A DNA stretch of 20,413 nucleotides from an uncultured delta proteobacterium (GCA_963847445.1 CAWJZV010000047.1:1-20413); one strand, 5' to 3'. Counted from the stretch's first letter, positions 2,878-20,341 are shown. Made by a program: numbers and translations. Notes: generated from the sequence alone by a model not told the origin.

Positions 2878-2918
2878 CGAGAAATGATCCTCCTGCTTTG
2901 ATCATTGACCGCTGGACG

Positions 2919-2948
2919 ATACTACCCGGCGCCCTAGCGTGATTACAA
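2919..2948 (-). promoter_or_regulatory. Possible sigma70 promoter for the 2877 SBP gene
   Basis: TTGTAA-N18-TAGTAT on the minus strand in the divergent intergenic region. Confidence 0.3.
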
Positions 2949-3015
2949 CTGGAATAAGTTAGCTTGACTTTAAGTGACCAGTGGATGTATGCGCAACTTC
3001 GAAGGGAAACGAATC

Positions 3016-3981
3016 ATGAAAAATTATCTCGCCGCCGCGACCTTACTCGGGTTCGCATGCATCGGGGCAGCCAACTCGCACGCTCAAGGCTATCCCAAGC
3101 AGCCGATCAACCTGATCATTCCCCTCGCCCCTGGTGACGCCACCGATGTCGCCGGGCGAACTATCGGCGAAGGTTTGTCGAAACTGCTCAAAGTCCCGGT
3201 CGTGGCGGTCAACCGTCCTGGTGCCGGCGGCACCATTGGCACCGACAGCGCAGTGAAGGCCGCTAAAGACGGCTACACCATTCTCATCACCAACAATGCC
3301 TCGATGGTCTTCAACCGCGTACTCACGCCGGAGGCGGTGCCCTATGATCCCTATAAAGATCTGACACCGCTGGGCATGGCCGCGCGCACGCCGATTGTTT
3401 TAGCGGTGCATAAAGACACGCCATTCAAAAATTTCGCTGAGATGATCGAGTATGGCAAAAAGAACCCTGGCGGGATTCGTATCGGCACCGTCGGTCCCGG
3501 CTCGGTCGGCCATTTCACGGTCGAGATTGTCAATTCGATCAGCCCCGCCGACATGACGATGATCCCATTCAAAGGCGCCGGCCCCGGCGTAACTGCTGCG
3601 CTCGGCGGCCATATCGAGGGTGCCGCCGTGGCCCAGGGCGTTGTTGCCGAGCATCTCAAGGCCGGCACCATGCGCGGCATCGTCGCGTCGAGCAAGATGC
3701 CCGAGTTTCCGCAGATCCCGACGCTCGCACAGCTCGGTTACAAACAAAATCTCTTGGGGGTCTGGTCGGCGTTCTTCGCCCCTGCCGGAGTGTCAGCGGA
3801 TGTGTCGAAAATACTGATCGCCGCCCTGGAGAAGGTCATCAAAGATCCCAACGTGGCAACGCGCCTAGGCAACCTCGGCATGGTCGCGGATTATGAATCG
3901 CCCGACAAACTAATAGCTGAAATACGCGAAGAACATCGCGCCGTGGAACAGATTGCCAAGAAAGCTGGGTTGATTAAATAG
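3016..3981 (+). CDS. Tripartite tricarboxylate transporter substrate-binding protein (TctC/Bug family)
   Basis: YPKQPINLIIPLAPGDATDVAGR, VVAVNRPGAGGTIG, AAKDGYTIL, IPFKGAGP and PEFPQIPTLAQLGY motifs. ATG 3016 (after GAAGGG) is preferred over the GTG at 2974. Confidence 0.92.
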   Translation: MKNYLAAATLLGFACIGAANSHAQGYPKQPINLIIPLAPGDATDVAGRTIGEGLSKLLKVPVVAVNRPGAGGTIGTDSAVKAAKDGYTILITNNASMVFNRVLTPEAVPYDPYKDLTPLGMAARTPIVLAVHKDTPFKNFAEMIEYGKKNPGGIRIGTVGPGSVGHFTVEIVNSISPADMTMIPFKGAGPGVTAALGGHIEGAAVAQGVVAEHLKAGTMRGIVASSKMPEFPQIPTLAQLGYKQNLLGVWSAFFAPAGVSADVSKILIAALEKVIKDPNVATRLGNLGMVADYESPDKLIAEIREEHRAVEQIAKKAGLIK

Positions 3982-4010
3982 CCCTAACTGCACCGACAGG
4001 TTCACGATTC

Positions 4011-4265: not shown

Positions 4266-4433
4266 TCCGGTAGGTTTTAGCCGCAGTTTGGGTGGACGAG
4301 ATACGACCGGGTGATCGGAATCTTTTTCCTTCTTCTTCAGGTCGGTACAGATCGCCGATAAGTCATAGTTGAATTTTGCCGCATGGGCTTCTCTTATCTT
4401 GCGAACTTCATCCACTATGGGATCTGATTTCAT
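4260..4433 (-). CDS. Small hypothetical protein (57 aa), putative antitoxin partner of the PIN protein
   Basis: Absent from the ORF track. MKSDPIVDEVRKIREAHAAKFNYDLSAICTDLKKKEKDSDHPVVSRPPKLRLKPTGS*. ATGA overlap with the PIN stop; SD GGAGGTG upstream; TAA inside the attC R'' box. Confidence 0.8.
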   Translation of the reverse strand: MKSDPIVDEVRKIREAHAAKFNYDLSAICTDLKKKEKDSDHPVVSRPPKLRLKPTGS

Positions 4434-4909
4434 GGCTCACCACCTCCTAACTCTTCGGGTGAACAAATCACAGGGCTCTCAAACCCTGCCGCTTCAATGA
4501 TAGTCCCGATTCGTGCTTTCATCTCGGCGTTGTTGATATGGCGGAAGTTCCAAGTCAAGAGAAAATCCATCCCGTGCACGGTTGCCAGTGAAATATGCAG
4601 CGCGTCTTCGGGACTCGATAGAGGTATCGCTCCTTCCTCCAACAGGCGTTTGCCTAATTGTTCGGCAGCGTCGTTAATCTCCAAAATGGGAAGCCCGGAT
4701 ATGGCTGCCAAGCGCCTTTGAGCTGCTTCAGTACTGCCGCTCTTCGCCTCCTCCACCACGAGTACCGAGACGTAAAGATCAAACCTGTCTCGAGCGTCCT
4801 GCCACCATTCTTGCGTGAGGGTCTGGCGGGCAGCAGTTACGATATCTCGACTCGACCGAGCTGTGTAATAGCTAATGACCGAGGTTTCAACGTAGACGGA
4901 AGACGGCAT
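4430..4909 (-). CDS. PIN-domain protein (VapC-like type II toxin)
   Basis: N-terminal VYVETSVISY, central SVLVVEE, and EDALHISLA...DFLLTWNFRH acidic PIN motifs. Confidence 0.87.
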   Translation of the reverse strand: MPSSVYVETSVISYYTARSSRDIVTAARQTLTQEWWQDARDRFDLYVSVLVVEEAKSGSTEAAQRRLAAISGLPILEINDAAEQLGKRLLEEGAIPLSSPEDALHISLATVHGMDFLLTWNFRHINNAEMKARIGTIIEAAGFESPVICSPEELGGGEP

Positions 4910-5161: not shown

Positions 5162-5776
5162 TCAGCCTGTCGCCAGCCCCTGCTTTTCCAAAAACGCGAT
5201 CACGCCGGCAACCCCTTCGCCGGTTTTCAGATTGGTAAACAGAAACGGTTTGTCGCCGCGCATCTTTTTCGCGTCGCGATCCATCACTTCGAGCGAGGCG
5301 CCGACCAGTGGTGCGAGGTCGACTTTGTTGATGATCAATAGATCGCTCTTGGTGATGCCGGGGCCGCCCTTACGGGGAATCTTGTCGCCGGCGGCGACAT
5401 CGATGACGTAGATCGTCACATCAGCCAGTTCGGGACTGAAGCTCGCCGCTAAGTTATCGCCGCCCGACTCGATAAAAATCACATCCAGATTGGCGAATCG
5501 GCGGCACAGCCGGTCCACCGCTTCGAGGTTGATCGAGGCGTCTTCGCGAATTGCGGTATGAGGGCAGCCGCCGGTTTCAACCCCAAGGATGCGCTCGGCC
5601 GGTAGCGCCTGGTGTCGTACCAGGAACTGGGCGTCCTCTTCGGTGTAAATATCGTTGGTGACCACCGCGAGATCGTAGCGCTCGCGCAGGGCGCGGCAGA
5701 GCTCGAGGATCAGCGCGGTCTTGCCCGAGCCGACCGGCCCGCCAATGCCGACGGAGAGAGGTTGCGATAATTTCAT
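5162..5776 (-). CDS. ureG: Urease accessory GTPase UreG
   Basis: [10 protein letters not shown]-loop, [22 protein letters not shown] and NKVD motifs. Confidence 0.98.
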
Positions 5777-5784
5777 ATGAGTTG

Positions 5785-6474
5785 TTAGGAACGAAACAAC
5801 CGCGAATATTGCGTCTCGTGCCGGCTCGACAGTAGCGCCAAGCGCGGTGTGAACGTGCCGATGTCGTCGTCGCTAACTGTCGACGCCTGGGCAACGACGG
5901 CGGCGAGACGGTCGCCGATGGCGAGCAGCATCCGTTGTCCGTCGGTTTGTCCCAGGGGCACAATCTTGAGCGCAGCCATAACCTGATTCTCCGCCCATGA
6001 CCAGAGATAGGCCGAAAGCGCCGCCGCCGGCGGTAGGTTCCACGAGCCCACGGCTAATGCGAAAGCGCTGGGAAAGGAAACCTCACCCAACTCGTTTACG
6101 AACGTAAGCGCATCTGCATCGATGCCGTCCAATTGGTTCAACAGCCGCGCCAGTGAGAATCCCATCTGCACCGTCTCGGCGCGCAGCTCGGCAGTCTCGC
6201 GGCTGGCGAGAATTAAATCGTTCCAATGTTGCACCGCGGCGAAATTTTCCGACCGCCACGCGTCGATCAAACGCAACAATACTGGCGCTTCCATGGACGC
6301 CATAGAATAGCTAAGCAGATCGATGATCCAAGCCTGCGCCGACTTTTGATCGTGCACGACACCGGCTTCCACTGCGGCTTCCAGGCCATGGGAATAGCTG
6401 AATGCGCCGACCGGCAAAACGGGACTGCTCAGTTGCAGCAAACGCACCAGTTCGCGACCGTTATCAAGATTCAT
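5785..6474 (-). CDS. ureF: Urease accessory protein UreF
   Basis: [34 protein letters not shown] and C-terminal [11 protein letters not shown]. Confidence 0.97.
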
Positions 6475-6977
6475 TTGCTGCTCGCAACCGGCTCCGGGCC
6501 ATATTCATGGATGCGGCCGGGTCGGCCTGTCTCTTCGCCGTGACGATGGCCATGGGCGTAGGCGCCCGCCTCGGGTTCGAACGGGGCAATCACGCGGCGT
6601 ACCGTCGCGCCGAGACCGAGCAGCATTTTTTCGAGCACCGGGTCCTCGGCGATGCGGAGGAAACCATCGCCCACTTGGGCAGCGACATGGCGATTGCCCA
6701 AATGATACGCCAGCCTTGGCAACTCGCTCGGATGGCTCGACTCGATCTGTAAAAGACTCTCCGGCGCGGCGATGACTTCGATCAACGCACCGTCGCTGGC
6801 ACGCAGCACTTCGCCGCCGCGCAAGATCGGCCCGCGCGGCAAGCGCACCAATGCTTCCTCACCGGATCGCAGCCTGCTGCTGAATTGGCGTTTTTGGCGC
6901 GCCGCGAAACTCAGTTCAAGCTGCCCCGCCAGCGGCGCGCCGCGGTTCGATTCACTTCTTTCGCTGATCTCGATCAT
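6471..6977 (-). CDS. ureE: Urease accessory nickel metallochaperone UreE
   Basis: LAYHLGNRH and PFEPEAGAY motifs, short His-rich tail; TGATG coupling to ureC. Confidence 0.96.
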
Positions 6978-8675
6978 CAGAATAGAAAATAACGTTGCGC
7001 CAGCGGCAACTCCCGCGCCGCTTCGCAGACTAGCAGCTCGCCGTCGGCGCGCACCTGATAAGTCTCCGGGTCGACGTCGATCTTGGGCTGATAGTCATTG
7101 TGGATCATATCTTTCTTGCGCAGTTTGCGGGTGCCCTTCACCGCCACCAGCGGTTTGGATAATTGCAGTTTTTGCAGTGCCGGATTTTTGCGACCCGCTT
7201 GCGAGACGAAAATCACCGAACTATTGAGCCCCTTGCCGAAGGCGCCGAACATGGGCCGGTAGTGCACCGGCTGAGGCGTCGGAATTGACGCATTGGGATC
7301 ACCCATGGCCGCCGCGGCGATCATGCCGCCTTTGAGTATCAGCGCCGGCTTGACGCCAAAAAATGCCGGCTTCCACAGCACCAGATCGGCGAGCTTGCCT
7401 GCTTCCACCGAGCCGACCAGATGCGCCATGCCGTGGGTGAGCGCAGGATTGATCGTGTACTTGGCAGATGTAGCGTTTGACCCGCTGGTTGTCGTTTCTA
7501 TCGGAATCGCCTTTGAGCGCACCGCGCTGCACTTTCATTTTGTGCGCGGTTTGCCAGGTGCGGATGATCACCTCGCCGACCCGCCCCATCGCCTGGGAGT
7601 CCGACGACATCATCGAAAACGCGCCGAGATCGTGCAGGATATCCTCGGCGGCGATGGTTTCCTTGCGGATGCGCGACTCGGCGAACGCCATATCCTCGGC
7701 GATGCTCGAATCGAGATGGTGGCACACCATCAGCATGTCAAGATGTTCGGCGATGGTGTTGACCGTGTATGGCCGGGTCGGATTGGTCGAAGACGGCAAG
7801 ACGTTGGGCTCGCCGCAGACTTTTATGATGTCCGGCGCGTGGCCGCCGCCGGCGCCCTCGGTGTGAAAGGTGTGAATCGTCCGGCCTTTAAACGCTTTGA
7901 TGGTCGCCTCGACGAAGCCCGATTCGTTCAATGTGTCGGTGTGAATCGCCACTTGGACGTCGAGCTTATCGGCCACCGTCAGACAATTATCGATGGCCGC
8001 CGGCGTCGTGCCCCAATCTTCGTGCAGCTTCAAACCGATGGCGCCGGCTTTGACTTGCTCGATGAGCGGCTGCGGCAAGCTCGCGTTGCCCTTGCCGAAG
8101 AAGCCGAGATTCATCGGAAACGCCTCGGCCGCACCGATCATCGATTGGATATGCCAGGGACCCGGCGTGCATGTGGTGGCGTAAGTCCCGGTCGCCGGAC
8201 CGGTGCCGCCGCCGAGCATGGTGGTGACCCCCGACATCAAGGCGTCGTCGATCTGCTGCGGGCAGATGAAATGAATATGCGAATCGATGGCGCCGGCGGT
8301 GACGATCTTGCCCTCGCCGGCGATTACCTCAGTTGCCGCGCCGATGGGGATCGTCACGCCGGGCTGAATGTCGGGGTTGCCGGCCTTGCCGATTTTCCAA
8401 ATGCGGCCGTTCTTGATGCCGATATCGGCTTTGACAATTCCCCAGTGGTCGATAATCAGCGCATTGGTGATGACGGTATCGGCCACCTTTGCCGAGCCCA
8501 GCTGGCTTTGCCCCATGCCGTCGCGAATGACTTTGCCGCCGCCAAACTTCACTTCCTCGCCGTAGGTGGTGAAATCCTTCTCGACTTCGATCCACAGCTC
8601 GGTATCGGCAAGGCGCACCCGGTCGCCCACCGTCGGACCGAACATTTCCGCGTAGGCATGGCGGTCGATCTTCAT
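6977..8675 (-). CDS. ureC: Urease alpha subunit UreC (565 aa once one extra base at ~7466 is removed)
   Basis: [45 protein letters not shown] motifs and C-terminal [21 protein letters not shown] is split between two frames (ATC T GCC). Confidence 0.96.
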
Positions 8676-8983
8676 TTAAGCGCTCCCATGACCCTGGCGT
8701 TGAAGCCATAAATCTTTCGCTCCCCTGCCACCGCGACCAGCTCCACCGTGCGGCTCTGGCCGGGTTCGAAGCGCACCGCCGTGCCGGCGGCGATATTCAA
8801 GCGAAAGCCGCGGCTTTTCTTGCGATCGAACTTGAGCGCTTCATTGGTCTCAAAAAAATGATAGTGCGAGCCGACCTGAATCGGCCGGTCGCCGCTGTTG
8901 GTGACTTCCAAGGTCAGCGTCCGTCTGCCTTTGTTGATCTCGATCTCACCTTCGGCCACTTTCATTTCACCTGGTATCATCAT
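8672..8983 (-). CDS. ureB: Urease beta subunit UreB
   Basis: [22 protein letters not shown] and [15 protein letters not shown] motifs. Confidence 0.98.
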
Positions 8984-8992
8984 CTCTCCTCA

Positions 8993-9037
8993 AACGATTT
9001 GAACGACTTGAACGGATGGAACGATTGGAACGGAGCC
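8993..9037. repeat. Degenerate 9-bp tandem repeat, 5 units
   Basis: aacgatttg aacgacttg aacggatgg aacgattgg aacggagcc. Confidence 0.75.
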
Positions 9038-9047
9038 GATCTTTATT

Positions 9048-9350
9048 TTAAACAATCGGATTATGCACGGTCACCAACTTGGTGCCGTCGGGAAACGTCG
9101 CTTCAATCTGAATATCCGGAATCATCTCAGCGATTCCTTCCATCACATCGTCGCGGGTCAACAGCGTTGCGCCCCAGCCCATTAATTCCGCAACGCTGCG
9201 GCCATCGCGCGCGCCCTCCATGATCGCCGCGCTAATGAACGCGACGGCTTCGGGATAGTTGAGCTTCAAACCGCGGGCTTTGCGCCGCTCGGCCAACAAT
9301 CCGGCGGTGAAGATGAGCAGTTTATCTTTTTCTCTCGGGGTCAATTCCAT
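9048..9350 (-). CDS. ureA: Urease gamma subunit UreA (100 aa)
   Basis: [12 protein letters not shown]...[10 protein letters not shown]...[17 protein letters not shown]; SD AAGGAG. The true start is 9350, not 9734. Confidence 0.98.
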
Positions 9351-9426
9351 TGCAATCTCCTTATTGGGCCGTGGGTTGACTAGGCGTACCACAGACAAAA
9401 TGACCGCTGGAAGTCGACTCTTATTT

Positions 9427-9512
9427 CCGTCCTTCCCGTGAAAACGGGAATCCAGGTTCTTTCGACTCCATGCCGGAATAAACCTGGATTCCCGCATCCG
9501 CGGGAATGACGG
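9427..9512. repeat. REP-like inverted pair of palindromic units (CGTC-tagged type)
   Basis: CCGTCCTTCCCGTGAAAACGGGAATCCAGG ... CCTGGATTCCCGCATCCGCGGGAATGACGG. Confidence 0.85.
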
Positions 9513-9532
9513 GGTAGGACACGGAACCGGAG

Positions 9533-9560
9533 AGATTTCTCGCTTCGCTCGAAATGACGG
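9533..9560. repeat. Solitary REP-like palindromic unit
   Basis: AGATTTCTCGCTTCGCTCGAAATGACGG, with the same ATGACG end as the neighbouring elements. Confidence 0.7.
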
Positions 9561-9644
9561 CGTGCTGCCGTCGTGCCTGTCATCCGCTCTTTCCATGTCA
9601 AGACTTCCATCTTGGTAGCAAGCTTCCCGTCGCACTTCCCAGTC

Positions 9645-9727
9645 TGTCATTCCGGCGCAAGCCGGAATCCACAAATTTGCCGGCAAACTAAAGACAAAGA
9701 TGGATACCGGCATTCGCCGGTATGACG
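9645..9727. repeat. REP-like inverted pair of palindromic units
   Basis: TGTCATTCCGGCGCAAGCCGGAATCCA ... TGGATACCGGCATTCGCCGGTATGACG. Confidence 0.85.
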
Positions 9728-9746
9728 GATTCATGATTCGACCGAC

Positions 9747-10586
9747 TTACGTCCTCCAGATTCTCGGTTCAACCGCCGTGCGCCCAATCACCGCCGGCCG
9801 GATCGCCTGCCAAATTTTTGTAAAATAAATCTTCGCCGCTGCGCTCGACCCGCCGAGATACCGTCCGACTAGGAGTCCAGGCAAAAGAGTTATGGCACCT
9901 TGGCCGCGCAGCGGTGCGATTTCACGGCAAGCTGCCAATAACGGCGGAGTCAATTTATCCGAGGCCGCCAGCATGGTGGCGACAACCGGCTCCCCAGCCA
10001 AGACTGCCGGTGCTTCGAGAGCGCGGTCATTACCGGCCAGGCACGCGCGCTCGAACCATAATGGTTTGCCGTCGCGTTTGAGGGTCGTGCGCGAACGCCA
10101 TTCGCCGCTGCTGAAGCGCTCAGCCGAACCGGTGCGGCCGAGGCAGAGAATTTCCCAACCGATAAATGCTCCATTGCCACTGAGTTCGACGTCAAGACGG
10201 GAGTCGGCGCGGGCCCCGTCGAAGACAATGGTTTCCTGCGGCAACCATTCGAGACTGGCCGCGCCGGCCACGTCGAAAATGACTCGCTGGCGCGCCCAGT
10301 CTCCCGCTGAGCGATACCATTTTGCCGCACCCGGCGTAGTCAGCAATGCGCTGGCCTCGGCACCAAGGTCGGTGCGCAACTCAAGCTCGTCGCCGCCGGC
10401 GATGCCGCCCGGTGGATGAACGATGATCGCGTGGCAAACCTCGTCGCCTTCAGGATAGAGCGGCTTTTGAATTACCAGAGGACCATCGTGACGCCGCGCC
10501 GACAAGACCGTGCGCGCGGCGCGCCGTTCAAACTCGAGGGCGAGTCGAGCATGCCATGCATGGGATTGGACCGCCTCGGTATTCAA
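9747..10586 (-). CDS. ureD: Urease accessory protein UreD (start uncertain; TTG 10586 gives 279 aa)
   Basis: WHARLALEF, GPLVIQKPLYPEG, HPPGGIAGGD, LTTPGAAKWYRS, LEWLPQETI and PRIWRT motifs. Confidence 0.95.
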   Translation of the reverse strand: MNTEAVQSHAWHARLALEFERRAARTVLSARRHDGPLVIQKPLYPEGDEVCHAIIVHPPGGIAGGDELELRTDLGAEASALLTTPGAAKWYRSAGDWARQRVIFDVAGAASLEWLPQETIVFDGARADSRLDVELSGNGAFIGWEILCLGRTGSAERFSSGEWRSRTTLKRDGKPLWFERACLAGNDRALEAPAVLAGEPVVATMLAASDKLTPPLLAACREIAPLRGQGAITLLPGLLVGRYLGGSSAAAKIYFTKIWQAIRPAVIGRTAVEPRIWRT

Positions 10587-10722
10587 TATCAGTCCCGGCA
10601 ATGAACCAACCTGTTTTGTGAAAATCACGGAGTTATTGAAATCCCCCATGGGACAGCCGTTGTCGAGGTTTGCATCGTTCATTGGCCAAACCAACGGTCC
10701 TATCCAATAAGCGGCCGGAAAC

Positions 10723-11196
10723 TTATTCGTTTGGCAAATCACTGCGGCGCGATAGCCGGGCAATCGAATCGATCAGCACGCGTTCTTTCTCGACCAGGGT
10801 GCGCAGCGATTCCTTGAATATCCGCTCCGATAGCAAAGGATATCGCAATAGTAAATTGCGAAAAACCTCAGCACTCCATTGCAGCACCGTCGCCGATTCC
10901 CGCGCGCGCACGGACGCCGCCCGAGGGATGCCGCAGAGCACAGCCAATTCGCCGAGGATCGTGCCCTGGCCGACGTCGGTGAGAATCATATCGCCGCCGT
11001 CGCGTTCGACGAAAACCTGTATTGTTCCGCCGAGCACGAGCACCGCAAACGCCGGTGGATCGCCCTCCTTGAATAGAAGTTCTCCCCCCGAGCAGGCGCG
11101 GATGTCGCCGCGCTCCAGCAGCCTTTGGGCGCCCTGGGCAGTAAAACCCTGCAACAATGGAAATGTCGTCATGGTCTCGGCGAATCGATCGTGCAT
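10723..11196 (-). CDS. Stand-alone cyclic nucleotide-binding domain protein (Crp-like sensor domain, no HTH)
   Basis: LFKEGD...VLVLGGTIQV...LGELAVLCGIPRAASVRA phosphate-binding cassette. Ends after a C-helix. ATG 11196 is preferred over GTG 11256. Confidence 0.85.
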   Translation of the reverse strand: MHDRFAETMTTFPLLQGFTAQGAQRLLERGDIRACSGGELLFKEGDPPAFAVLVLGGTIQVFVERDGGDMILTDVGQGTILGELAVLCGIPRAASVRARESATVLQWSAEVFRNLLLRYPLLSERIFKESLRTLVEKERVLIDSIARLSRRSDLPNE

Positions 11197-11301
11197 AACC
11201 ACCCTCGCCTCCCTTGCTGCTGCCGGCGACAGTATCGGCAACTTGGTTCGAGACACCTCGAAGCGAAACTTTTTTCTTGCGGTGCAGAGTATGACGAGCG
11301 C

Positions 11302-12051
11302 TTACACGCTCAACCAGCGCTTCACGTCGTCACCAAGAAGCCGCTCGCGGTCTCCTTCCATGATGATGGCACCGCGGTCGAGCACGCAATAGTAGTCACA
11401 AATCTCGCGGGCGAAGTCTAAGTATTGCTCGACCAGCAGGATGGCGATGCGGCCTTCCTCTTTGATGCGCCGCACCGCGGCTTTGATCGCTTCGAGCTCC
11501 GGCGACTCCCGTCTTGCGCCCTTGACCCGATGCAGCACTTTCTGGATCTGCTGAATGATCGATGGCTGAATTCCCTCCGTCGGCTCGTCCAGAATCAGCA
11601 GCTTGGGTTTCGTGAGCAGCGCCCGTCCAATCGCCAGCTGTTGCTGCTGGCCGCCCGAGAGATCGCCGCCGCGCCGTTGGCGCATTTCCTTGAGCACGGG
11701 AAACATTTCGTAAATCTCCGGATCGATTTCCCGGGTTTTTTGCCCGGCCAATCCGGTTAACAGGTTTTCTTCCACCGTGAGCCGGGGAAATATCTCCCGT
11801 CCCTGCGGCACGTAGCCGAGACCGAGGCGCGCCCGCGCGTGCGGTGAGGCGTGGGTAATATCTTGGCCGTCGAGCGTGATCGTGCCGGAGCGCACGCGCT
11901 CGACGCCCATCAGCGATTTGAGCAGCGTGCTTTTGCCGACGCCGTTACGGCCGAGCACCGCGGTACAGGTCCCGGCGGCGACTTCGAAGGAGATGTCGCT
12001 CAACGTGTGGCTGCCGCCATAGTAGTGATTTAATCCTTCAACTTGCAGCAT
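11302..12051 (-). CDS. urtE: Urea ABC transporter ATPase UrtE
   Basis: YYGGSHTL, GRNGVGKS, YVPQGREIFPRLTVEEN, LSGGQQQQLAI, LDEPTEGIQPSII and LLVEQY motifs. Confidence 0.95.
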   Translation of the reverse strand: MLQVEGLNHYYGGSHTLSDISFEVAAGTCTAVLGRNGVGKSTLLKSLMGVERVRSGTITLDGQDITHASPHARARLGLGYVPQGREIFPRLTVEENLLTGLAGQKTREIDPEIYEMFPVLKEMRQRRGGDLSGGQQQQLAIGRALLTKPKLLILDEPTEGIQPSIIQQIQKVLHRVKGARRESPELEAIKAAVRRIKEEGRIAILLVEQYLDFAREICDYYCVLDRGAIIMEGDRERLLGDDVKRWLSV

Positions 12052-12053
12052 GA

Positions 12054-12879
12054 TCAGCGCCCGAGATAAACTTCGATGACCCGCTCGTCGTTCTGCACGG
12101 TATCCATCGTTCCTTCCACCAGTACGCTGCCCTCGTGGAGCACCGTCACCTTGCGTGCCAGCGACGCGACGAATGCCATGTCGTGCTCGACAACGACTAA
12201 AGAATGCTTTCCCTCCAACGACAGGAACAGTTCCGCCGTGCGCTCGGTCTCTTCGTCGCTCATGCCCGCGGCGGGCTCGTCGAGCAGCAGCACTTGCGGC
12301 TCCTGGATCAGCAACATACCGATTTCAAGCCACTGCTTTTGCCCATGCGACAAAAGCCCCGCTTGATCGCGCATGCGGTTCTTGAGATTTATTTGCTTGA
12401 GCATTGCGTCGATGCGATCCTCTTCCGCCGAATCGCGCCGGTGAAATAGGGTATCCCACACGCCTTTCGGGCTTTTGATCGCGAGCTCGAGATTTTCGTA
12501 CACGGTGTGGTTTTCAAACACGGACGGTTTTTGAAACTTGCGGCCGACACCGAGGCGCGCGATCTCGTACTCGGGCAACTTGGTGAGATCGAGGGTCTGG
12601 CCGAGGAAAACCGTGCCGGTGTCCGGCCGCGTTTTGCCGGTGATGACGTCCATCATGGTCGTCTTGCCGGCGCCGTTGGGACCGATCACACAGCGCAGTT
12701 CGCCGACATCGATGGAAAAAGACAAATCGTTGAGGGCGCGAAAGCCGTCGAAACTGACCGTCACGCCTTCGAGATAAAGAATCGCCTTATGGGAGACATC
12801 GATCGCTTCGGCCTGGACCACGTGGCTGATACCGGTGCTTTCGATACCGCCGTCGAAGTCCCAATGTCTCGCTCGTCAT
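12054..12879 (-). CDS. urtD: Urea ABC transporter ATPase UrtD (probable +1 indel at 12860-12862)
   Basis: VSFDGFRALN, GPNGAGKT, GRKFQKP, LSHGQKQWLEIGM and VVVEHDM motifs. The ATGA-coupled start at 12879 is in frame if TTGGGAC is read as TTG GAC. Confidence 0.93.
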
Positions 12880-13968
12880 TTGTCGCCCCGCCGCGCCAAG
12901 CCCATCACGCCTTTGGGCAAATAGACGGTGACCACGACGAATAGCGCGCCGAGAAAATACAACCAGAACTCCGGCCAGGCGACGGTGAAATAACTCTTGG
13001 CGCCGTTGACGATGGCGGCGCCGAGAATCGCTCCAGCGAGAGTGCCGCGGCCGCCCACGGCCACCCAGATGGCGATTTCGATGGAGTTCGCCGGCGACAT
13101 CTCGCTCGGGTTGATGATGCCCACCTGGGGCACGTAGAGCGCGCCGGCAATACCGCACAACAGCGCCGACAGTGTCCAGACAAAAAGTTTGTAGTCGCGG
13201 GTGTTGTAGCCGGAAAACATCGTGCGCGACTCGGCGTCGCGAATCGCCGCGAGCACCCGGCCAAACTTGGAAGTGACGATGTAGCGGCACAGCAGCAGGG
13301 TCAGGATCAGAACCAACCCGGTAACCGCAAACAGGGTCACGCGAGTGCCGGGATGAGCCAGGGAGAATCCCATGATCCGTTTGAAGTCGGTGAAGCCGTT
13401 GTTGCCGCCAAATCCCGTGTCGTTACGAAAAAACAGCAGCATGAACGCAAAGGTCAGCGCCTGGGTGATGATCGAGAAATAGACGCCCTTGATGCGCGAG
13501 CGAAAGGCAAACCAGCCGAAAACAAACGCCAGCAAACCGGGCACGAGCAGGATTTTCAATAGCGCCAATGAGAAATACTCGCTGCCGGCCCAATACCAGG
13601 GAAACTCTTTCCAGTCGAGAAAGACCATGAAGTCGGGCAAGATGCTGCGATACTGCCCTTCGGCGCCGATCTCGCGCATGAGATACATGCCCATCGAGTA
13701 ACCGCCCAGGGCGAAGAACAAACCATGGCCGAGGGAGAGGATGCCGGCATAGCCCCAAATCAAATCCATCGCCAAGGCGACAATGGCGTAGCACATGATC
13801 TTGCCGATCATGAGCAGGTAGTAATCGGAGAGGTGCAGCGGGTTTTCCGCCGGCAGCAGCAAACGCAGCAAAGGTATGACGAGCAACACGACGGCTGAAA
13901 AAACCCCAAGGCCGAACCAGGCCGGGCGGCTGTAAAACGAATTCGCTAGCGTTACCTTGCGAATCCAT
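12876..13968 (-). CDS. urtC: Urea ABC transporter permease UrtC (probable +1 indel in the first codons)
   Basis: DLIWGYAGILSLGHG, RSRIKGVYFSIITQAL, GFGGNNGFTDF and WVAVGGRGTL motifs. ATG 13968, just after the urtB stop, is one base out of frame with the gene body. Confidence 0.93.
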
Positions 13969-13969
13969 C

Positions 13970-15583
13970 TCAGCTCTCCGCCATGCGTCCCTTCAAGGCG
14001 AACAATCCTTGGGGCCGTTTCTGGATGAACAGGATGATGATGATCAGGACAAAAATCTTCCCCAGCACGGCGCCGGTGAACGGTTCTAAAAATTTATTGA
14101 TTTCGCCCAAGACCGATGGCGGCGATGATGGTGCCGGCCAATTGGCCGACGCCGCCCAGAACCACGACCATGAACGAATCGACGATATAGCTTTGGCCCA
14201 GGTCGGGGCCGACGTTGCCGATCTGGGATAACGCCACGCCGCCCAGACCGGCGATGCCGGAGCCAAGACCGAAGGTGAGCCAGTCGACGCGCGGCGTCGG
14301 GATGCCCATGCAGTCGGCCATGGTGCGGTTTTGCGTCACGGCGCGGACGTAAAGACCGAGTCTTGTGCGGGTGAGAAAAAGCCAGACTAGAAATACCACG
14401 AACGCAGCGAACAAAATGATCACGACGCGGTTATAAGGCAGCACGACATCGGCGCCGAGATTGAAACCGCCCGACATCCAGGCCGGATTGGCGACCTCGA
14501 CATTTTGCGCGCCGAATAGCGAGCGCACCGACTGAGTCAGCATCAAGCTGATGCCCCAGGTGGTGAGCAAGGTTTCCAGCGGCCGGCCGTAGAGAAAACG
14601 AATGACGGTGCGCTCCAGCACGATGCCGACCAACGCCGCCACCGCGAACGCCATCGGCACCGCCGCGGCGATATACCAGTCCAGCCAGTTGGGCAAATAT
14701 GCTCGGAACAAACTCTGGGCGACATAGGTGGTGTAGGCGCCGAGCATGAGCATTTCGCCATGGGCCATATTGATGATGCCCATCAACCCGAAGGTGATCG
14801 CTAGACCGAGGGCGGCCAGCAATAGCACGCTGCCGAGGCTCAGACCGCTAAACAGCGTGGCGGCGATCTGGGGCAAGAGCGAGCGGCGCTCGATGGCGCG
14901 CAGCGCCGCGGTCGCCGCGGCCCGGACGCCGGCATCGGTCTCGATAAAACTGCCATCCGAGTTTTTTTCCAGCAGCTTGCCGATAATCTGTTTCGCCTGG
15001 GGATTGTCGCTGCTGCCCAGTAAATTCACGGCGTCGCGGCGCAGTGCGGCATCGCCGCTTTTGATTTCCACGAGTGAGCGTGCCTGGTTGAGCAAGCGCT
15101 TCACTTCGTCGTCGCTTTCTTTGCTGAGAGCGGTTTTGATCAGCGGCAGCATTTCGTCGCTGGGATCGCCGGCCACTGCCCGCGCCGCCGCCAGGCGCTC
15201 GTCCGATTGGATGAAACCAGCTTGAGCGCAGCGATGGCGCCGTCGAGGGCGGCGCGAATCCGGTTATTGATCATGATCGCTTCGCGTTTGTCCGCCGGCG
15301 CGACAATCGGCTCGCCGCTAAGCGCGTCCTTGGCCCCGCTGCCCTCGACGATCGCCAGACGGCCATTCACCAGCACAAGGATATCGTCTTGGAGCGCTTT
15401 CAATATCGGGATCGCGGCGGCATCACCGGTGGCAACCAGCTTCTGGATCGCGGCAAGTTTAGCGTCGCCATCTTCGGCGCCGAGCTGCTTGGCTGTCGCG
15501 CCATCGATGGCATAGGCCCAGGCGGCGCTGGTGAACAGCATGACGGTAAGTGCCGCGGCTCGACACCAGCACGGTGTGATCAT
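13970..15583 (-). CDS. urtB: Urea ABC transporter permease UrtB with N-terminal periplasmic extension (-1 indel at ~15203, +1 indel at ~14107)
   Basis: Three ORF pieces join into one protein: INNRIR..., LGLAITFGLMGIINMAHGE, YGRPLETLL.TWG, DSFMVVVLGGVG and FIQKRPQGLFALKGR. Confidence 0.92.
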
Positions 15584-15706
15584 TGGGTGAGCTGCTCTCG
15601 CATAATGATGAAATAAACTGAACGTGCTTCGACCCTTCGAGGGGCCCCGAGAGAATTTTACCGCAACTTGCCAGACCTTTGTGGGAATCTCAACGACCGC
15701 GGATTG

Positions 15707-15744
15707 AGCAGCGCCGGAAACTGCATCGAGTTCCCGGCGCTGCT
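15707..15744 (-). terminator. Strong stem-loop just after urtA (mRNA stabiliser or partial terminator)
   Basis: AGCAGCGCCGGGAACT-CGATGC-AGTTTCCGGCGCTGCT, a 16-bp stem with one G-U pair and no U tract. Confidence 0.55.
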
Positions 15745-15751
15745 GTCGGTT

Positions 15752-17080
15752 CTATTTCTTTTTCGCGATGATTTCCGGTTCGTCTTTTTTCTTGTCGTTG
15801 CCGGCGATGTAGGGGCTCCAGGGTTTGGCTTTCACCGGGCCCGGCGTCTTCCACACGATATTGAACTGTCCGTCCGCCTTCACTTCGCCGACGAACACCG
15901 GCTTGTGCAGGTGATGATTTTTCTCGTCCATCTTAATCGTAAATCCCGAAGGCGCCTTGAAGCTCTGACCGCCCACGGCGGCGATCACTGGGTCGACATC
16001 GGTGGTTTTCGCTTTTTCCACCGCTTGCTTCCACATGTATATGCCAATGTAGGCGGCTTCCATCGGGTCGTTGGTCAACGGTTTATCCTTGTGGCCGGCA
16101 AGATTTTTCGCTTTGGCGTAGGCCGCCCACTTCTTGGTGAACTCATCGTTGGTCGGATTTTTCAGCGACATGAAATAATTCCACGCCGCCAGATGTCCCA
16201 CCAGCGGTTTGGTATCGACGCCGCGCAGCTCCTCCTCGCCGACTGAGAACGCCACCACTGGAACATCCTTGGCTTTTAGGCCCTGATTGCCCAGTTCCTT
16301 GTAAAAAGGCACGTTGGAGTCGCCGTTGATGGTCGAAATCACCGCGGTCTTTTTGCCTTCACCGGCGAATTTTTTGATTTTGCCAATGATCGTCTGATAG
16401 TCGGTGTGGCTGAACGGCGTGTACTCTTCCAGGATATCCGCGTCGGGAATATTCTTAGATTTCAGGAAGGCGCGCAGAATTTTATTGGTCGTGCGCGGGT
16501 AGACATAGTCCGTGCCGAGCAACACGAAGCGCTTCGCGCCGCCGCCGTCCTTCGACATCAAATACTCGACGGCCGGAATCGCCTGCTGATTTGGCGCGGC
16601 GCCGGTATAAAAAACATTTTTCGAAAGCTCCTCGCCTTCATATTGCACCGGATAGAAAAGCAAGCCGTTCAATTCCTCGAAAACCGGCAAGACGCTCTTG
16701 CGCGACACCGAGGTCCAGCAGCCGAACACCACGGCGACTTTGTCCTGGGTAATCAACTGGCGCGCCTTCTCCGCGAACAGCGGCCAGTTCGACGCCGGAT
16801 CGACAACCACGGCCTCGAGTTTCCTCCCTAACACGCCGCCCTTGGCATTGATCTCTTCGATGGCCATCAGGGTCACGTCCTTGAACACGGTTTCACTGAT
16901 CGCCATGGTTCCGCTCAACGAATGGAGCACGCCAATTTTGATGGTATCTTTACTCTGCGCTCTGACCGGCAGCGGCATCGCCAGCAATGCCGCAATTCCC
17001 GTGAGCGCGCTCAGGCGCTTGAAAAAATTGCACCGGCCTTGTCGAATCGCGACATTGATTCTCTTAAATACGGTAGCCAT
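15752..17080 (-). CDS. urtA: Urea ABC transporter substrate-binding protein UrtA
   Basis: IKIGVLHSLSGTMAISE, FGCWTSVSRKSVLP, YPVQYEG, GAAPNQQ, GTDYVYPRTTN and TNDPMEA motifs; SD GGAGG. Confidence 0.96.
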   Translation of the reverse strand: MATVFKRINVAIRQGRCNFFKRLSALTGIAALLAMPLPVRAQSKDTIKIGVLHSLSGTMAISETVFKDVTLMAIEEINAKGGVLGRKLEAVVVDPASNWPLFAEKARQLITQDKVAVVFGCWTSVSRKSVLPVFEELNGLLFYPVQYEGEELSKNVFYTGAAPNQQAIPAVEYLMSKDGGGAKRFVLLGTDYVYPRTTNKILRAFLKSKNIPDADILEEYTPFSHTDYQTIIGKIKKFAGEGKKTAVISTINGDSNVPFYKELGNQGLKAKDVPVVAFSVGEEELRGVDTKPLVGHLAAWNYFMSLKNPTNDEFTKKWAAYAKAKNLAGHKDKPLTNDPMEAAYIGIYMWKQAVEKAKTTDVDPVIAAVGGQSFKAPSGFTIKMDEKNHHLHKPVFVGEVKADGQFNIVWKTPGPVKAKPWSPYIAGNDKKKDEPEIIAKKK

Positions 17081-17146
17081 GAACTCCCTCCATGTAGCAA
17101 ACGGTTAATAATGAATTCCCCTAAATTCCCCCGTCACGAATCTTTG

Positions 17147-18439
17147 CTAGAATAAAAACTGCGCTTGGAACCTAAAGCGATGCGCATCGCGCGCCTTGGG
17201 TTGGCCGCGAAAGTTGTCGTTGTCGAGAAAGCTATAGTCGGTCTGAAGCTTCAGGTTGTGGCCATGGATGTAGTAGTTCAAGCCGCCGGTGTACGCGGTG
17301 GTCTTGCGATTCACTCCGGCAACATTCAGCTTGTCGAATTCAACCCCCGAGATCCGCCCGGCCAATTCCAACTTGCCGGGCACAAGATAATAGCCAAGCT
17401 GAGAGTAGTATCCCCAGTCATTGCCATCGGACAGTCCAGGCGTGGTATAACTGTCGCGGCGATAATAACCGGCACCCTGAATAGTCAGCTGCTCCCAACG
17501 AAAACCGAGATCTAACGTGACGTTGGTCGTGCTATCTTTGCTTAGCAAATTTTGAAACGACGAAGCACCGTCGATGGGATTGTAAGCCACCGCGACGCCG
17601 ACGGAGAGTTGCGGTTCGGTCACGGGCTTGGGCGAACTCTCGTAGTAGCCATAGGGTTTAAGAATGTCCAATTCCAAGCGTCCGAGCGCGCCGATGTTAC
17701 TGCCGATATTCTGCTGCCCAGGCGCATCCAGGGCGCGGACACTGTTAAGCGTTGCCGCGTGATAGGAAAGCGGGCCGAGTTTGCCGGAAACATGAGCGCC
17801 GATGCCGCGCGGCAGATTGAACGCATAGTCAGCTTCCGACAAATCGGAGAACAGGAGATTTCCCGGATGGGTGTAGAATTGCCGGCTGTACGGCAGCACA
17901 AAGCGCCCACCCTGCAGGCCAAATTCGGGAGCGAAACTATATTTCATCCACCAATCCAGCATCGTAATATCGTTATTGTTGCCGAAAGTACTGCCCTGAA
18001 GCTGCATGAAATAATTTAGTTTAGGGTCAAACATCGTCCCTGACAGCGCTAACCGAGCCAGCCCGACATCGAAATTCTGGTTGGTGTGTCCATTCTCGGG
18101 CGCGTCGAACGTGTAACGGAACTGGGCGAAGCCGTTCGCCACCAGCGAGAACGGCTTGTCCTTACTGCGGATATAAAATCCGTCGTCGTAACCGGCCTCG
18201 ACGGCCGGCAATTTTGCAATTGCTTCCGCCTGGGCTTTGGCTCTCGCCTCGTTTTTCGCCTCCTGCGACTCGACGCGCTTCTCAAGCTGTTCGATATAAG
18301 CGCGTTGCTTCGCCAACTCTTGGCGCAGCAGTTTTAAATCCTCCGCGGATTCCGCCGCTATCGACCAGCCCGAAGTGAAACCCAAACTAACTGCCCCCGC
18401 CACCATTGCGATGGCCACACGATCCCATGCTCCCCTCAT
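17147..18439 (-). CDS. Outer-membrane porin (OprO/OprP-like beta-barrel), probable urea/short-amide channel
   Basis: Signal peptide, coiled-coil stalk, YDDGFYIRS...GFAQFRY, GLNYYIHGHNLKLQTDY and terminal RFQAQFLF (C-terminal Phe); first gene of the urt cluster. Confidence 0.82.
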   Translation of the reverse strand: MRGAWDRVAIAMVAGAVSLGFTSGWSIAAESAEDLKLLRQELAKQRAYIEQLEKRVESQEAKNEARAKAQAEAIAKLPAVEAGYDDGFYIRSKDKPFSLVANGFAQFRYTFDAPENGHTNQNFDVGLARLALSGTMFDPKLNYFMQLQGSTFGNNNDITMLDWWMKYSFAPEFGLQGGRFVLPYSRQFYTHPGNLLFSDLSEADYAFNLPRGIGAHVSGKLGPLSYHAATLNSVRALDAPGQQNIGSNIGALGRLELDILKPYGYYESSPKPVTEPQLSVGVAVAYNPIDGASSFQNLLSKDSTTNVTLDLGFRWEQLTIQGAGYYRRDSYTTPGLSDGNDWGYYSQLGYYLVPGKLELAGRISGVEFDKLNVAGVNRKTTAYTGGLNYYIHGHNLKLQTDYSFLDNDNFRGQPKARDAHRFRFQAQFLF

Positions 18440-18446
18440 AAATGAT

Positions 18447-18519
18447 CCTCCTCTGATGTTTTGCTACTCGTTGCATTGTCGATCCGCCGTTGGATCAAGA
18501 GGAGACCACGTTGTCTTCC
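18447..18519 (-). promoter_or_regulatory. ANTAR-type dual-hairpin RNA element overlapping an anti-SD sequence
   Basis: AGAC-AACGTG-GTCT, linker CCTCTT, GATCC-AACGGC-GGATC. Both hexaloops have A1 and G4 and a closing C-G pair. CTCCTCTTGAT can pair instead with ATCAGAGGAG, which includes the SD. Confidence 0.72.
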
Positions 18520-18539
18520 AAACCTGGTTATGCGAGTTG

Positions 18540-18556
18540 AGCAACTCCTATGCCGG
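18540..18556 (-). promoter_or_regulatory. Sigma54 (-24/-12) promoter
   Basis: CCGGCATAGGAGTTGCT = GG-N10-GC, close to the consensus YTGGCAC-N5-TTGCW, about 100 nt upstream of the porin ATG. Confidence 0.8.
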
Positions 18557-18628
18557 AAAAGAAGCAGCTCGTGAAATAACTTAAGGTACTTGAAACAATG
18601 GGATTTCAGCACCCGCCGAAGTATTTCA

Positions 18629-18667
18629 TGCCCATTTATTTTGCAGCAGCTGGCTAATCCCTAGGCA
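18629..18667. promoter_or_regulatory. Tandem NtrC-like enhancer boxes
   Basis: TGCCCATTTATTTTGCA (18629-18645) and TGGCTAATCCCTAGGCA (18651-18667): 17-bp TGC/TGG-N11-GCA dyads 22 bp apart, upstream of the sigma54 site. Confidence 0.6.
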
Positions 18668-18822
18668 CACGCCTATTTTGCGATCAAAGGAGATATGACC
18701 GGCGGGTAGTCGTAATTCGCTGAATTGGGTGTAGTGAGGTGAGTCAGTTTCAATCGCCGGTTTAAAACCGTGACTAACAAACTTTCTCGCAAACCAGCTT
18801 TATCGCGCGAGGAAGACCGCCA

Positions 18823-18927
18823 TCAACTTGCTAACGCTTTCATGAAGCATCGCTCGATCATCACGTCGACACTGATGCCCCGCTTGAGCCGGCGGTTTTC
18901 GAAATCTTGGTCGATGACTGTGGCTAT
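18823..18927 (-). pseudogene. 3'-terminal relic of an NMT1/SsuA-like SBP gene
   Basis: IATVIDQDFENRRLKRGISVDVMIERCFMKALAS* aligns without gaps to the C-terminus of the 19394 gene, IPAVIEEEFQTGRIKKKVTLEDMIDRSFMKALGK*. Confidence 0.75.
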
Positions 18928-19038
18928 GGGTCTGGGTCTTTTGTAACCTTTTGTCGTCTCGCAAAAAAATGCGCCGTTTGAGACATCACCATGCCTCAAA
19001 CGGCGCCCGTCCTTATCGTCGGATACTCTGTAGGAAGT

Positions 19039-19360
19039 TTATGAATTGCAGATTTGCCGCTTCGCCGCGTCGTCGCCGAGAATATTATCTTTTTGCTTTG
19101 CCGCCAGAGCCGTTCGCGCGCGGATTCTGGCTACGGTGTGCGGTAACTCCGAATCGAAGCGCGGACAGTCGGAGGCCATCAAGATATATATGATCCTCGC
19201 CGATTTCCTTGAGCGACGGGCTTATATCGCTTTCGTCCGCTTCGCAGGTCACGTAACAATTGTGCTTGACGTAGCCCGCCGGCGTCATTTTGAGCTCGCC
19301 GGAAACCTGCGGGTAAATTCTTGGCCCGCTCCCAGTCGGATCGAAAGTTGTCGCTCCAGC
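19039..19360 (-). pseudogene. Decayed C-terminal part of an amidohydrolase gene
   Basis: DWERAKN / ELKMTPAGYVKHNCYVTCEADE...IGEDH / ILMASDCPRFDSELPHTV...KQKDNILGDDAAKR, broken by two frameshifts (one in an AT run at 19184-19191). The usual SDYPH motif has decayed to SDCPR. Confidence 0.78.
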
Positions 19361-19393
19361 TTAAGTTGATATCATCGCGTTGGCGCACTCTTT

Positions 19394-20341
19394 CTATTTA
19401 CCCAACGCTTTCATAAATGAGCGGTCGATCATGTCCTCCAGAGTCACTTTCTTTTTTATTCTACCGGTCTGGAATTCCTCTTCGATCACGGCCGGAATAA
19501 TTTTTTCGGCGATCTTGCCGTCCAGCGGGAACGAATCACGATATTCGTCGTATCCCGCCGGCGCGTAGGCCGGGTCTAGCTTGACGTATTTGAGCATGGT
19601 CTTCACCGCATCGTCTTTGTTCTCATGCGTATACTTTACGCCCTTTTGATAGGCGCGAAGAAATTTCGTGACTTGATCCCTTTCTTTGCTGAGGTAGGTC
19701 TCCTTAGCGGCAAAAGTTTCATAGGGCCATTCCGGAAAGACTTCTTTGAGGTCGAGAAGCTTATTATAGCCTTGCGCTTTGGCGATCTCGGTCACCGGGA
19801 ACCATACCAGGGAAGCGTCCACACCCTTCGCCGATAGGGCCGCGAATCGCGCCGGCGTGCTGCCGATCTGGAGTATGGTCACATCCTTGGTGTCCACGCC
19901 GAAGTGGCGCAGGCTCGAGCGCGTCAGAAAGTCGGTGAGCGAGCCGAAGCGGCTGATCGCAAACCGCTTACCCTTGGCCTGCTTCATCGACTTGAAGTCC
20001 GGCTGAGAGTAAAGCTGGAACGGCATAATATTGGAGACGCCCCAAAAGTTTTTGACGTCGATTCCGGCGGCGCGGCCGCCGATGGTTTCGACGAATGCGC
20101 TGCCCATGATCTGCACGTCGCCGCCGATAAGCGCCTGAAGATTGGTGGCGCCGGCGTTAAATAATACCAGCAGAACGTCTAGCCCTTCGTCTTTGAAAAA
20201 GCCCTTTGCCTCGCTGACATAGACGGGCAAGAAAGCCACGTTCACGGACGACAGGCCGACGACAATTTTCGCCGAAACCGGTTGCCAGAGCAGTCCCACT
20301 AACAATAACGTCGAAATGATCAATACACTCATTCGTTTCAT
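19394..20341 (-). CDS. ABC-type substrate-binding protein, NMT1/THI5/SsuA-like
   Basis: Signal peptide; FLPVYVSEAKGFFKDEGLDV, KGKRFAISRFGS and MIDRSF motifs. Confidence 0.88.
   Translation of the reverse strand: MKRMSVLIISTLLLVGLLWQPVSAKIVVGLSSVNVAFLPVYVSEAKGFFKDEGLDVLLVLFNAGATNLQALIGGDVQIMGSAFVETIGGRAAGIDVKNFWGVSNIMPFQLYSQPDFKSMKQAKGKRFAISRFGSLTDFLTRSSLRHFGVDTKDVTILQIGSTPARFAALSAKGVDASLVWFPVTEIAKAQGYNKLLDLKEVFPEWPYETFAAKETYLSKERDQVTKFLRAYQKGVKYTHENKDDAVKTMLKYVKLDPAYAPAGYDEYRDSFPLDGKIAEKIIPAVIEEEFQTGRIKKKVTLEDMIDRSFMKALGK

Follow-up and report, generated by a model that had tools for sequence, protein, structure and literature searches.

The window analyzed here is a stretch of 20,413 nucleotides from an uncultured δ-proteobacterium (GCA_963847445.1, CAWJZV010000047.1), whose minus strand carries a urea uptake and urease operon. 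The first gene of this operon encodes a 430-aa porin of the OprO/P family (17147-18439; Pfam PF07396, E 3.1e-11). It is followed by urtA, urtB, urtC, urtD, urtE, ureD, ureA, ureB, ureC, ureE, ureF, and ureG (5162-17080), all assigned by Pfam; urtA (15752-17080) also matches TIGR03407 with 591 bits against a cutoff of 492.75. The homologues of the porin (n = 243) are named mainly as Binatia or Deltaproteobacteria. The main subject of this study is the leader of the porin gene, in which a pair of adjacent hexaloop hairpins, resembling the RNA targets of ANTAR-domain proteins, is placed in a setting of nitrogen metabolism.

The leader, like the operon, is read on the minus strand. It begins downstream of a sigma54-type -24/-12 promoter, GGCATAGGAGTTGCT (18554-18540), with GG at 18554-18553 and GC at 18542-18541 in consensus spacing (TGGCAC-N5-TTGC). 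Between the predicted transcription start and the double hairpin there is a small 5' hairpin, CCA-GGUU-UGG. The first hairpin of the pair, P1, is AGAC-AACGUG-GUCU (18516-18503) and can be extended to GGAAGAC/GUCUCCU (18519-18500) with one A.C mismatch; as argued below, it would be the switching hairpin. It is separated by the linker CCUC from P2, UUGAUCC-AACGGC-GGAUCGA (18498-18479), which has a stem of 7 bp around the 5-bp core GAUCC-AACGGC-GGAUC. Both hexaloops have A in the first and G in the fourth position (A1 and G4) and a C-G closing pair. After a spacer of 24 nt follow the Shine-Dalgarno (SD) region of the porin gene, AGAGGAGG (18454-18447), and the porin start codon AUG (18439-18437), so that the SD and the AUG lie about 25-40 nt downstream of P2, outside the double hairpin.

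The initial annotation of the window had interpreted these hairpins as an ANTAR-type translational ON switch. The strings and coordinates that it quoted are all correct on the minus strand, that is, P1, P2, the putative anti-SD segment CUCCUCUUGAU (18504-18494), and its complement AUCAGAGGAG (18457-18448). Its statement that the leader has no U-tailed terminator is also borne out: no terminator-like site was found at 18440-18530, compared with seven elsewhere in the scanned region 16900-19400, and none was found in the leaders of two related loci, L009 and L025, described below.

Recurrence of the double hairpin in orthologous leaders

With the motif defined as two A..G.. hexaloop hairpins with stems of at least 4 bp and a linker of at most 12 nt, one match was found on the two strands of the window. 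Dinucleotide shuffles of the window (n = 200) contain on average 0.975 motifs each, and 62% of them contain at least one, which speaks against ascribing a function to the pair by itself. A single occurrence in the window is no more than chance would supply, and it is comparison that carries the case: not the mere presence of the motif, but its position within the leader, together with its reappearance in leaders of orthologues, goes beyond chance.

Sixty loci, mostly from Candidatus Binatia metagenome-assembled genomes (MAGs), were retrieved from genome contigs with an alignment of 20 porin homologues. The leader set (n = 57) comprises the 170 nt upstream of the predicted start in 56 of these loci and in the window. 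Outside it are L003, for lack of upstream DNA; L059 and L060, as partial matches; and L058, where no motif was found either by a loose scan of the locus or by a strict scan of 697 kb. With stems of at least 3 and at least 5 bp, the motif is present in three leaders, those of the window, L009, and L025 (porin identity to the window 81% and 57%, respectively), compared with 0.2 expected, and none of 300 shuffles reaches three. With stems of at least 4 and at least 6 bp, two cases are observed over the 57 leaders against 0.027 expected, and the stems of L025, 7 and 6 bp, have an expectation of 0.003 over the whole set. The L025 porin gene itself (2732-4000) is split into open reading frames (ORFs) at 2732-3172 and 3245-4000, probably by indels in a long-read MAG, and single-base details of this locus need caution.

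In a quick maximum-likelihood tree of 55 porins (IQ-TREE), the window, L009, L025, and L003 form one clade with an SH-aLRT support of 100. The motif is found in all three visible leaders of the clade and in none of the 54 leaders outside it, a distribution that points to a single origin of the motif and its subsequent retention. As there are only three leaders with the motif, and the window and L009 are closely related, the comparison effectively involves about two independent sequences with one probable origin, which again weakens the functional case.

The strict scan, made on both strands, gave 12 matches, with long stems solely at the three leader sites; the nine other matches are weak, and no further member of a regulon was found among the 697 kb. 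Looser settings (stems of at least 3 bp, linker of at most 15 nt, positions -500 to +150) returned matches in 12 of the 60 loci; besides L009 and L025, these are pairs of 3-5 bp at unrelated positions, and they were dismissed as chance. A double hairpin at the SD and start codon of L026 was likewise counted as chance, being disrupted, as judged by eye, in the relatives L029 and L024.

The two loops are AACGUG and AACGGC in the window, AACGUC and AACGGC in L009, and AAAGCA and AAUGUA in L025. Positions 1, 2, and 4 (A1, A2, and G4) are invariant in all six loops, each of which is closed by C-G, and in both loops the window and L025 have different bases at positions 3, 5, and 6. The linker has 4 nt in the window with the 7-bp form of P2, or 6 nt with the 5-bp form, 8 nt in L009, and 5 nt in L025. 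Covariation in orthologous leaders, proposed in the initial annotation as a check, is in its favor over these three sequences: RNAalifold recovers P1 and P2 from the alignment of the leaders and nothing else, three of the 11 stem pairs are compensatory, P2 having two compensatory pairs relative to L025, and no pair is broken apart from one alignment gap.

The ANTAR targets described in the part of PMC3369931 used here are tandem hairpins with hexaloops carrying A1 and G4, their linkers being 5-12 nt long in Enterococcus faecalis, and linkers of 3 or 14 nt impaired the function of the eutP leader. The linkers found here (4-8 nt) fall inside the E. faecalis range or at its edge, and the range may differ for other ANTAR proteins. 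The base that makes contact with the protein, by flipping out, is G4 (PMC8934654). The motif of the window fits the published definition of two tandem hairpins in a 5' leader with A1/G4 hexaloops, and we consider it likely that the element is of the ANTAR type. This identity, first suggested in the initial annotation, has gained comparative support from the clade distribution, the invariant loop positions, and the compensatory pairs; the protein partner that it implies did not emerge from the scans reported below.

The sigma54-type promoter is kept between the window and L009. The same pattern was found in 36 of the 57 orthologous leaders by a loose definition and in 32 by a strict one, and because of the former count we regard the promoter as a trait of the porin family. 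The distance from the promoter to the AUG is 115-121 nt in the window, L009, and L025 versus 50-89 nt in the other 33 promoter-bearing leaders, and the surplus length of the three leaders with the motif is about the size of the module.

Further observations concern the porin family at large. Two porin paralogues located about 9.5 kb apart were seen on several Binatia chromosomes (L015/L035, L018/L036, L033/L038, L032/L041, L043/L044, L031/L058, and L039/L054), one copy having the sigma54 promoter and the other lacking it (11 of the 14 loci, leaders inspected). Inspection of L001 by eye revealed, at about 5930-5985, a sigma54-like promoter and, downstream of it, two hairpins that overlap and are alternatives to each other, GGAC...GUCC and GUCCC-AAAAAU-GGGAC; they share GUCC and directly precede the SD, and this may be a different kind of leader switch. 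Seven records (L007, L019, L023, L024, L027, L040, and L055) are titled Klebsiella pneumoniae or Enterobacteriaceae, and their porins fall among those of the Binatia type in the tree; the taxonomic labels of these MAGs look unreliable.

Predicted sequestration of the Shine-Dalgarno region and predicted direction of control

An anti-SD segment, CUCCUCU (18504-18498, minus strand), is composed of two bases from the end of the P1 3' arm, the linker CCUC, and the first base of P2. In all three leaders the anti-SD is made of the P1 3' arm and the linker. It pairs over 7 bp in the window (CUCCUCU/AGAGGAG), by the same pairing with an extension in L009, and over 12 contiguous pairs in L025 (GUCUUUCUCAAA with UUUGAGGAGGAU). 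The energies of the anti-SD:SD duplexes are -12.2, -17.2, and -14.0 kcal/mol in the window, L009, and L025, respectively, and 2000 composition-matched shuffles give p values of 0.038, 0.009, and 0.0025.

The leaders were folded from the predicted start to +25. In the minimum free energy (MFE) structure of all three, P1 is broken, P2 is kept, and the SD is paired; in the window, the 7-bp CUCCUCU:AGAGGAG helix is stacked on P2, with a total of -30.0 kcal/mol. When the double hairpin is enforced, the energy changes from this value to -22.7 kcal/mol in the window, from -29.5 to -23.1 kcal/mol in L009, and from -49.1 to -35.4 kcal/mol in L025. The probability of an unpaired SD is 0.29 in the window, 0.04 in L009, and 0.001 in L025 without this constraint, and it increases to 0.56, 0.18, and 0.24, respectively, with it. 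The L025 leader as a whole is strongly structured (z = -5.1, 0 of 200 shuffles). In length-by-length folds of L009 and L025, P1 and P2 form the MFE structure until the SD is transcribed, and P1 is then displaced, which is the behavior expected of a kinetic switch that could be trapped by an RNA-binding protein.

These folds modify the initial annotation, in which the double hairpin and the sequestered state were held to be mutually exclusive. P1 is indeed excluded by the SD trap, whereas P2 survives in the MFE fold. The 10-bp helix of the initial annotation, with its one bulge, would disrupt P2, and at -28.4 kcal/mol it is less favorable than the fold with P2 intact (-30.0 kcal/mol). Constrained folding of both states, also suggested there, makes the SD more accessible with the double hairpin and frees it only in part. 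The translational-ON logic itself retains the support of an anti-SD pairing that recurs in three leaders free of terminators, with the amendment that the switch involves P1 only.

We propose the following model. P1 and P2 would fold first during transcription; the emerging SD region would then displace the 5' arm of P1 and pair with its 3' arm and the linker, and the anti-SD:SD helix, stacked on the intact P2, would keep porin translation low. An activated ANTAR-domain dimer, encoded elsewhere, could bind both A1/G4 hexaloops and hold P1, so that the anti-SD strand would be kept off the SD and translation would be turned on. Since P2 is present in both states and P1 in the open state only, a protein needing both hexaloops would favor the open state, and the predicted sign of control is therefore activation. 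The effect on porin translation may reach the rest of the operon via reduced Rho polarity or decay. The operon would then respond to two inputs, nitrogen limitation via the sigma54 activator and a second signal via the ANTAR protein. The translational-ON mechanism predicted from the modeled folds is plausible and recurs in the three leaders. The complete scheme, that is, an ANTAR-type element joined to an SD-sequestering platform in a translational ON switch of the sigma54-dependent porin-urtABCDE-ure operon, has in our opinion slightly less than an even chance of being correct. With somewhat greater reserve, we suggest that an uncultured Binatia-like lineage possesses a natural ANTAR riboregulator that activates translation, in which P1 is trapped, the SD is freed, and the roles of P1 and P2 are reversed.

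Several observations weigh against this model, in addition to the chance-level frequency of the motif in the window and the small number of independent sequences. The transcription start, near 18529 and 10-13 nt ahead of P1, is a prediction from the usual sigma54 geometry. No Rfam family was found at the leader of the window by a gathering scan and by E-value scans, where the only matches are weak (narK RNA RF03032, E 4.9 and 8.1), and the L025 leader gave no matches. The ANTAR domain (PF03861) was detected neither in the 25 ORFs of the window nor in 13 ORFs of L009 and L025, nor in 145 representatives of the 168 clusters formed from the window and the flanks of the 60 loci (643 greedy ORF calls of at least 100 aa, with window-protein clusters and L009 singletons scanned separately). 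The sequestered state is favored by 6-14 kcal/mol, and therefore the protein would have to act kinetically. P1 of the window is weak: the isolated energies are -2.2 kcal/mol for its core, -5.8 kcal/mol for its extended form, and -7.5 kcal/mol for P2, and a window-specific 5' hairpin, ACCA..UGGU (-7.4 kcal/mol), outcompetes the extended P1 in RNAfold. The core of P1 shares just 2 nt with the anti-SD helix, or 5 nt when extended, and even with the core enforced GAGG remains open to pairing with the linker CCUC, so that the SD is freed only in part. The folds of the window and L009 leaders are not unusual (z = -1.49 and -0.76, respectively), and the topology is the reverse of the classical case, where P2 switches (PMC8934654). 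Finally, the frame of urtB in the window is shifted twice (about 15200 and 14105, with the L009 UrtB protein as the reference), giving split ORFs, and that of ureC once (about 7463, with the L060 UreC protein as the reference), which reflects either assembly indels or decay of the operon into pseudogenes in this genome.

One alternative, a functionless chance pair of small hairpins, was already disfavored by the comparison. The shuffles of the window produce such pairs at the observed rate, and the loose scans yield 3-bp pairs in 10 other loci along with the nine weak matches in 697 kb. Against this stand the position, conservation, covariation, and anti-SD complementarity that recur in L009 and L025, as well as the long stems of L025 with their very low expectation, and we regard chance as highly improbable. 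More serious is a clade-specific leader that sequesters the SD without any ANTAR protein, acting as a constitutive damper or a thermosensor or as the target of another factor or a small RNA, with A1 and G4 retained by ancestry. The failure to find an ANTAR gene in the scanned ORFs of the window and flanks, the count of about two independent sequences, and the single motif per window would all agree with such a leader, and the top four P1 pairs, AGAC/GUCU, are identical in the window and L025, possibly through common descent. However, a plain SD trap requires neither P1 nor a hexaloop P2. Of the twelve loop positions, six differ between these two leaders; the six that are kept are precisely 1, 2, and 4 in each loop, and the stems have changed by compensation. 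In addition, there is a resemblance to the GnfR site in the loop and its closing pair (PMC2995071), and ANTAR regulons center on nitrogen genes, urea transporters included, in the material drawn from PMC3369931. Taken together, these data make the ANTAR-independent leader not very likely.

The element may also be a true ANTAR target with an output other than simple activation of porin translation, such as protection from Rho or RNase, or stabilization of P2 accompanied by repression. As P2 is present in both folds, a protein with P2 as its only target would leave the equilibrium unchanged; the SD of the window is freed only in part when P1 forms; and the natural cases of translational control by ANTAR proteins, as presented in the portions of PMC8164766 and PMC12591593 considered here, are repressors. 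In contrast to the actinobacterial repressor class, however, the SD and the start codon lie outside the double hairpin, and in all three leaders binding to P1 is thermodynamically coupled to freeing of the anti-SD strand. We think that a different output is unlikely.

Neighboring genes and other features of the region

A short upstream AUG at 18476 was rejected as a start of translation: it is out of frame, has no SD, and does not occur in L009. Upstream of the porin promoter, a strong intrinsic terminator with a 16-bp stem and a T run (18961-19006, minus strand) insulates the promoter from an SsuA-like gene; its counterpart in L009 is at 5679-5705. Between this 16-bp terminator (19006-18971) and the porin promoter, the 3' end of the SsuA/NMT1-like gene occurs a second time, as an orphan copy (about 18830-18921, minus strand). 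The copy is 77% identical to the end of the L009 gene and explains a large share of the roughly 600 nt by which the intergenic DNA exceeds that of L009. The palindrome TAGGC-N4-GCCTA, with AAA before it (18662-18675, minus strand), is located about 120 nt upstream of the sigma54 promoter and is kept in L009 (about 5760-5776; 15 of 17 positions match the window). It is a candidate site for the enhancer-binding protein that would activate this promoter.

The NMT1-family gene itself (19394-20341) was considered as a possible NasS-like sensor and rejected; its product has an N-terminal signal peptide and matches the SsuA family, and the signal peptide rules this neighbor out as a cytoplasmic sensor of the NasS kind. 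The SsuA-like/NMT1 gene of L009 has upstream of it a gene for a molybdopterin oxidoreductase rather than for a NasT-like protein.

Within the operon, the Rfam family 5_ureB_sRNA (RF02514) has a full-model match of 111.9 bits at 8243-8529 on the plus strand, opposite the urease alpha gene in its 5' part and thus in antisense orientation. This match may reflect just the conservation of the urease coding sequence and not an antisense RNA in this organism. Directly downstream of ureG, a gene for a PIN-domain protein (4430-4909, minus strand; PF01850, E 2.2e-6) may be a remnant of a toxin-antitoxin system.

Comparison with known ANTAR systems

ANTAR regulators are widespread, and their natural output modes in the literature surveyed are antitermination and actinobacterial translational repression. 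The EutV/eutP-type antiterminators of E. faecalis share with the window leader the tandem A1/G4 hexaloop hairpins, a short linker, and an exclusive alternative fold whose formation protein binding is supposed to forestall (PMC8934654 and the cited part of PMC3369931). In the eutP type, an intrinsic terminator serves as the alternative fold; it takes up P2 and leaves P1 folded (PMC8934654), whereas in the window there is no terminator, and the anti-SD:SD helix takes up the 3' arm of P1 and leaves P2 folded. Because the leaders of the window, L009, and L025 contain no terminator, the classical antiterminator class is ruled out for them; this exclusion does not extend to ANTAR binding as such.

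A further known system is that of Geobacter sulfurreducens, which belongs to a related, δ-proteobacteria-like phylogenetic neighborhood. There, GnfL/GnfM (RpoN activator) and GnfK/GnfR (REC-ANTAR) combine RpoN -24/-12 promoters, nitrogen genes, and an ANTAR-bound leader hairpin (PMC2995071). The GnfR site, CAGGCAANGGCGCC, is located downstream of RpoN promoters, and its core C-AANGGC-G equals the loop and closing pair of the window P2, C-AACGGC-G (PMC2995071). Unlike the proposed switch, GnfR relieves premature termination in the nif, glnK, and amtB leaders; the paper describes no SD trap and no urea genes, the word "urea" occurring in it 0 times (PMC2995071). ANTAR sites preceding "Urea transporter genes; urease subunits" were listed for Desulfotomaculum carboxydivorans (Table S2 of PMC3369931), with the same target class and a dual hairpin. 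This organism is a Firmicute, its sites were selected for a terminator overlapping P2, and neither a porin nor a sigma54 promoter is reported for them in the tables and text of PMC3369931 drawn on here.

A layered control of initiation and leader RNA also exists in nitrate assimilation. The nasF promoter of Klebsiella is subject to Ntr/sigma54 control. In the NasR/nasF leader and in NasT-NasS, the Ntr/sigma54 control of initiation is combined with ANTAR control, as proposed for the window, according to the section of PMC5424462 used here; both systems differ from the window in acting by antitermination and in sensing nitrate. The initial annotation had spoken of the best candidate for an undescribed system. 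The term was too strong, as ANTAR sites at urea genes and the layering of sigma54 and ANTAR control have already been published. The expression platform alone looks new, and the urea target class and the sigma54 layering are not.

Control at translation initiation is known for the mycobacterial and actinobacterial ANTAR RNAs (10.1101/660928 and PMC8164766, each cited for the part concerning these RNAs). In the actinobacterial RNAs, the site of ribosome binding (RBS) or the start codon is inside the dual hairpin, and binding represses (PMC8164766, same part). In the window, a distance of about 25 nt separates P2 from the RBS downstream of it, and the predicted effect of binding is activation. 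The literature searched yielded no natural ANTAR leader that has an anti-SD or translational-activation platform, most subscription journals being outside its coverage; within the cited part of PMC3369931, translational control is raised as a mere possibility in the legend of Figure S3.

If translational activation through the trapping of P1 is confirmed, it would be a third natural output mode of ANTAR proteins beside antitermination and translational repression, and the dual-hexaloop module would be portable between expression platforms. It would also place a second checkpoint after sigma54 activation for urea scavenging in abundant uncultured lineages of soil and sediment. The three leaders supply concrete sequences for testing this prediction. 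An analog of the proposed logic is synthetic: in the riboptoregulators built with the ANTAR photoreceptor NmPAL, a cis-repressing RNA covers the SD, and protein binding relieves the block (PMC11381354, in the part describing the design). These constructs are engineered, employ an aptamer obtained by selection in place of a dual hexaloop, and are not leaders of natural operons (PMC11381354, same part). The porin leader, if it functions as we propose, would be a natural counterpart of what synthetic biologists constructed, independently, from an ANTAR photoreceptor.

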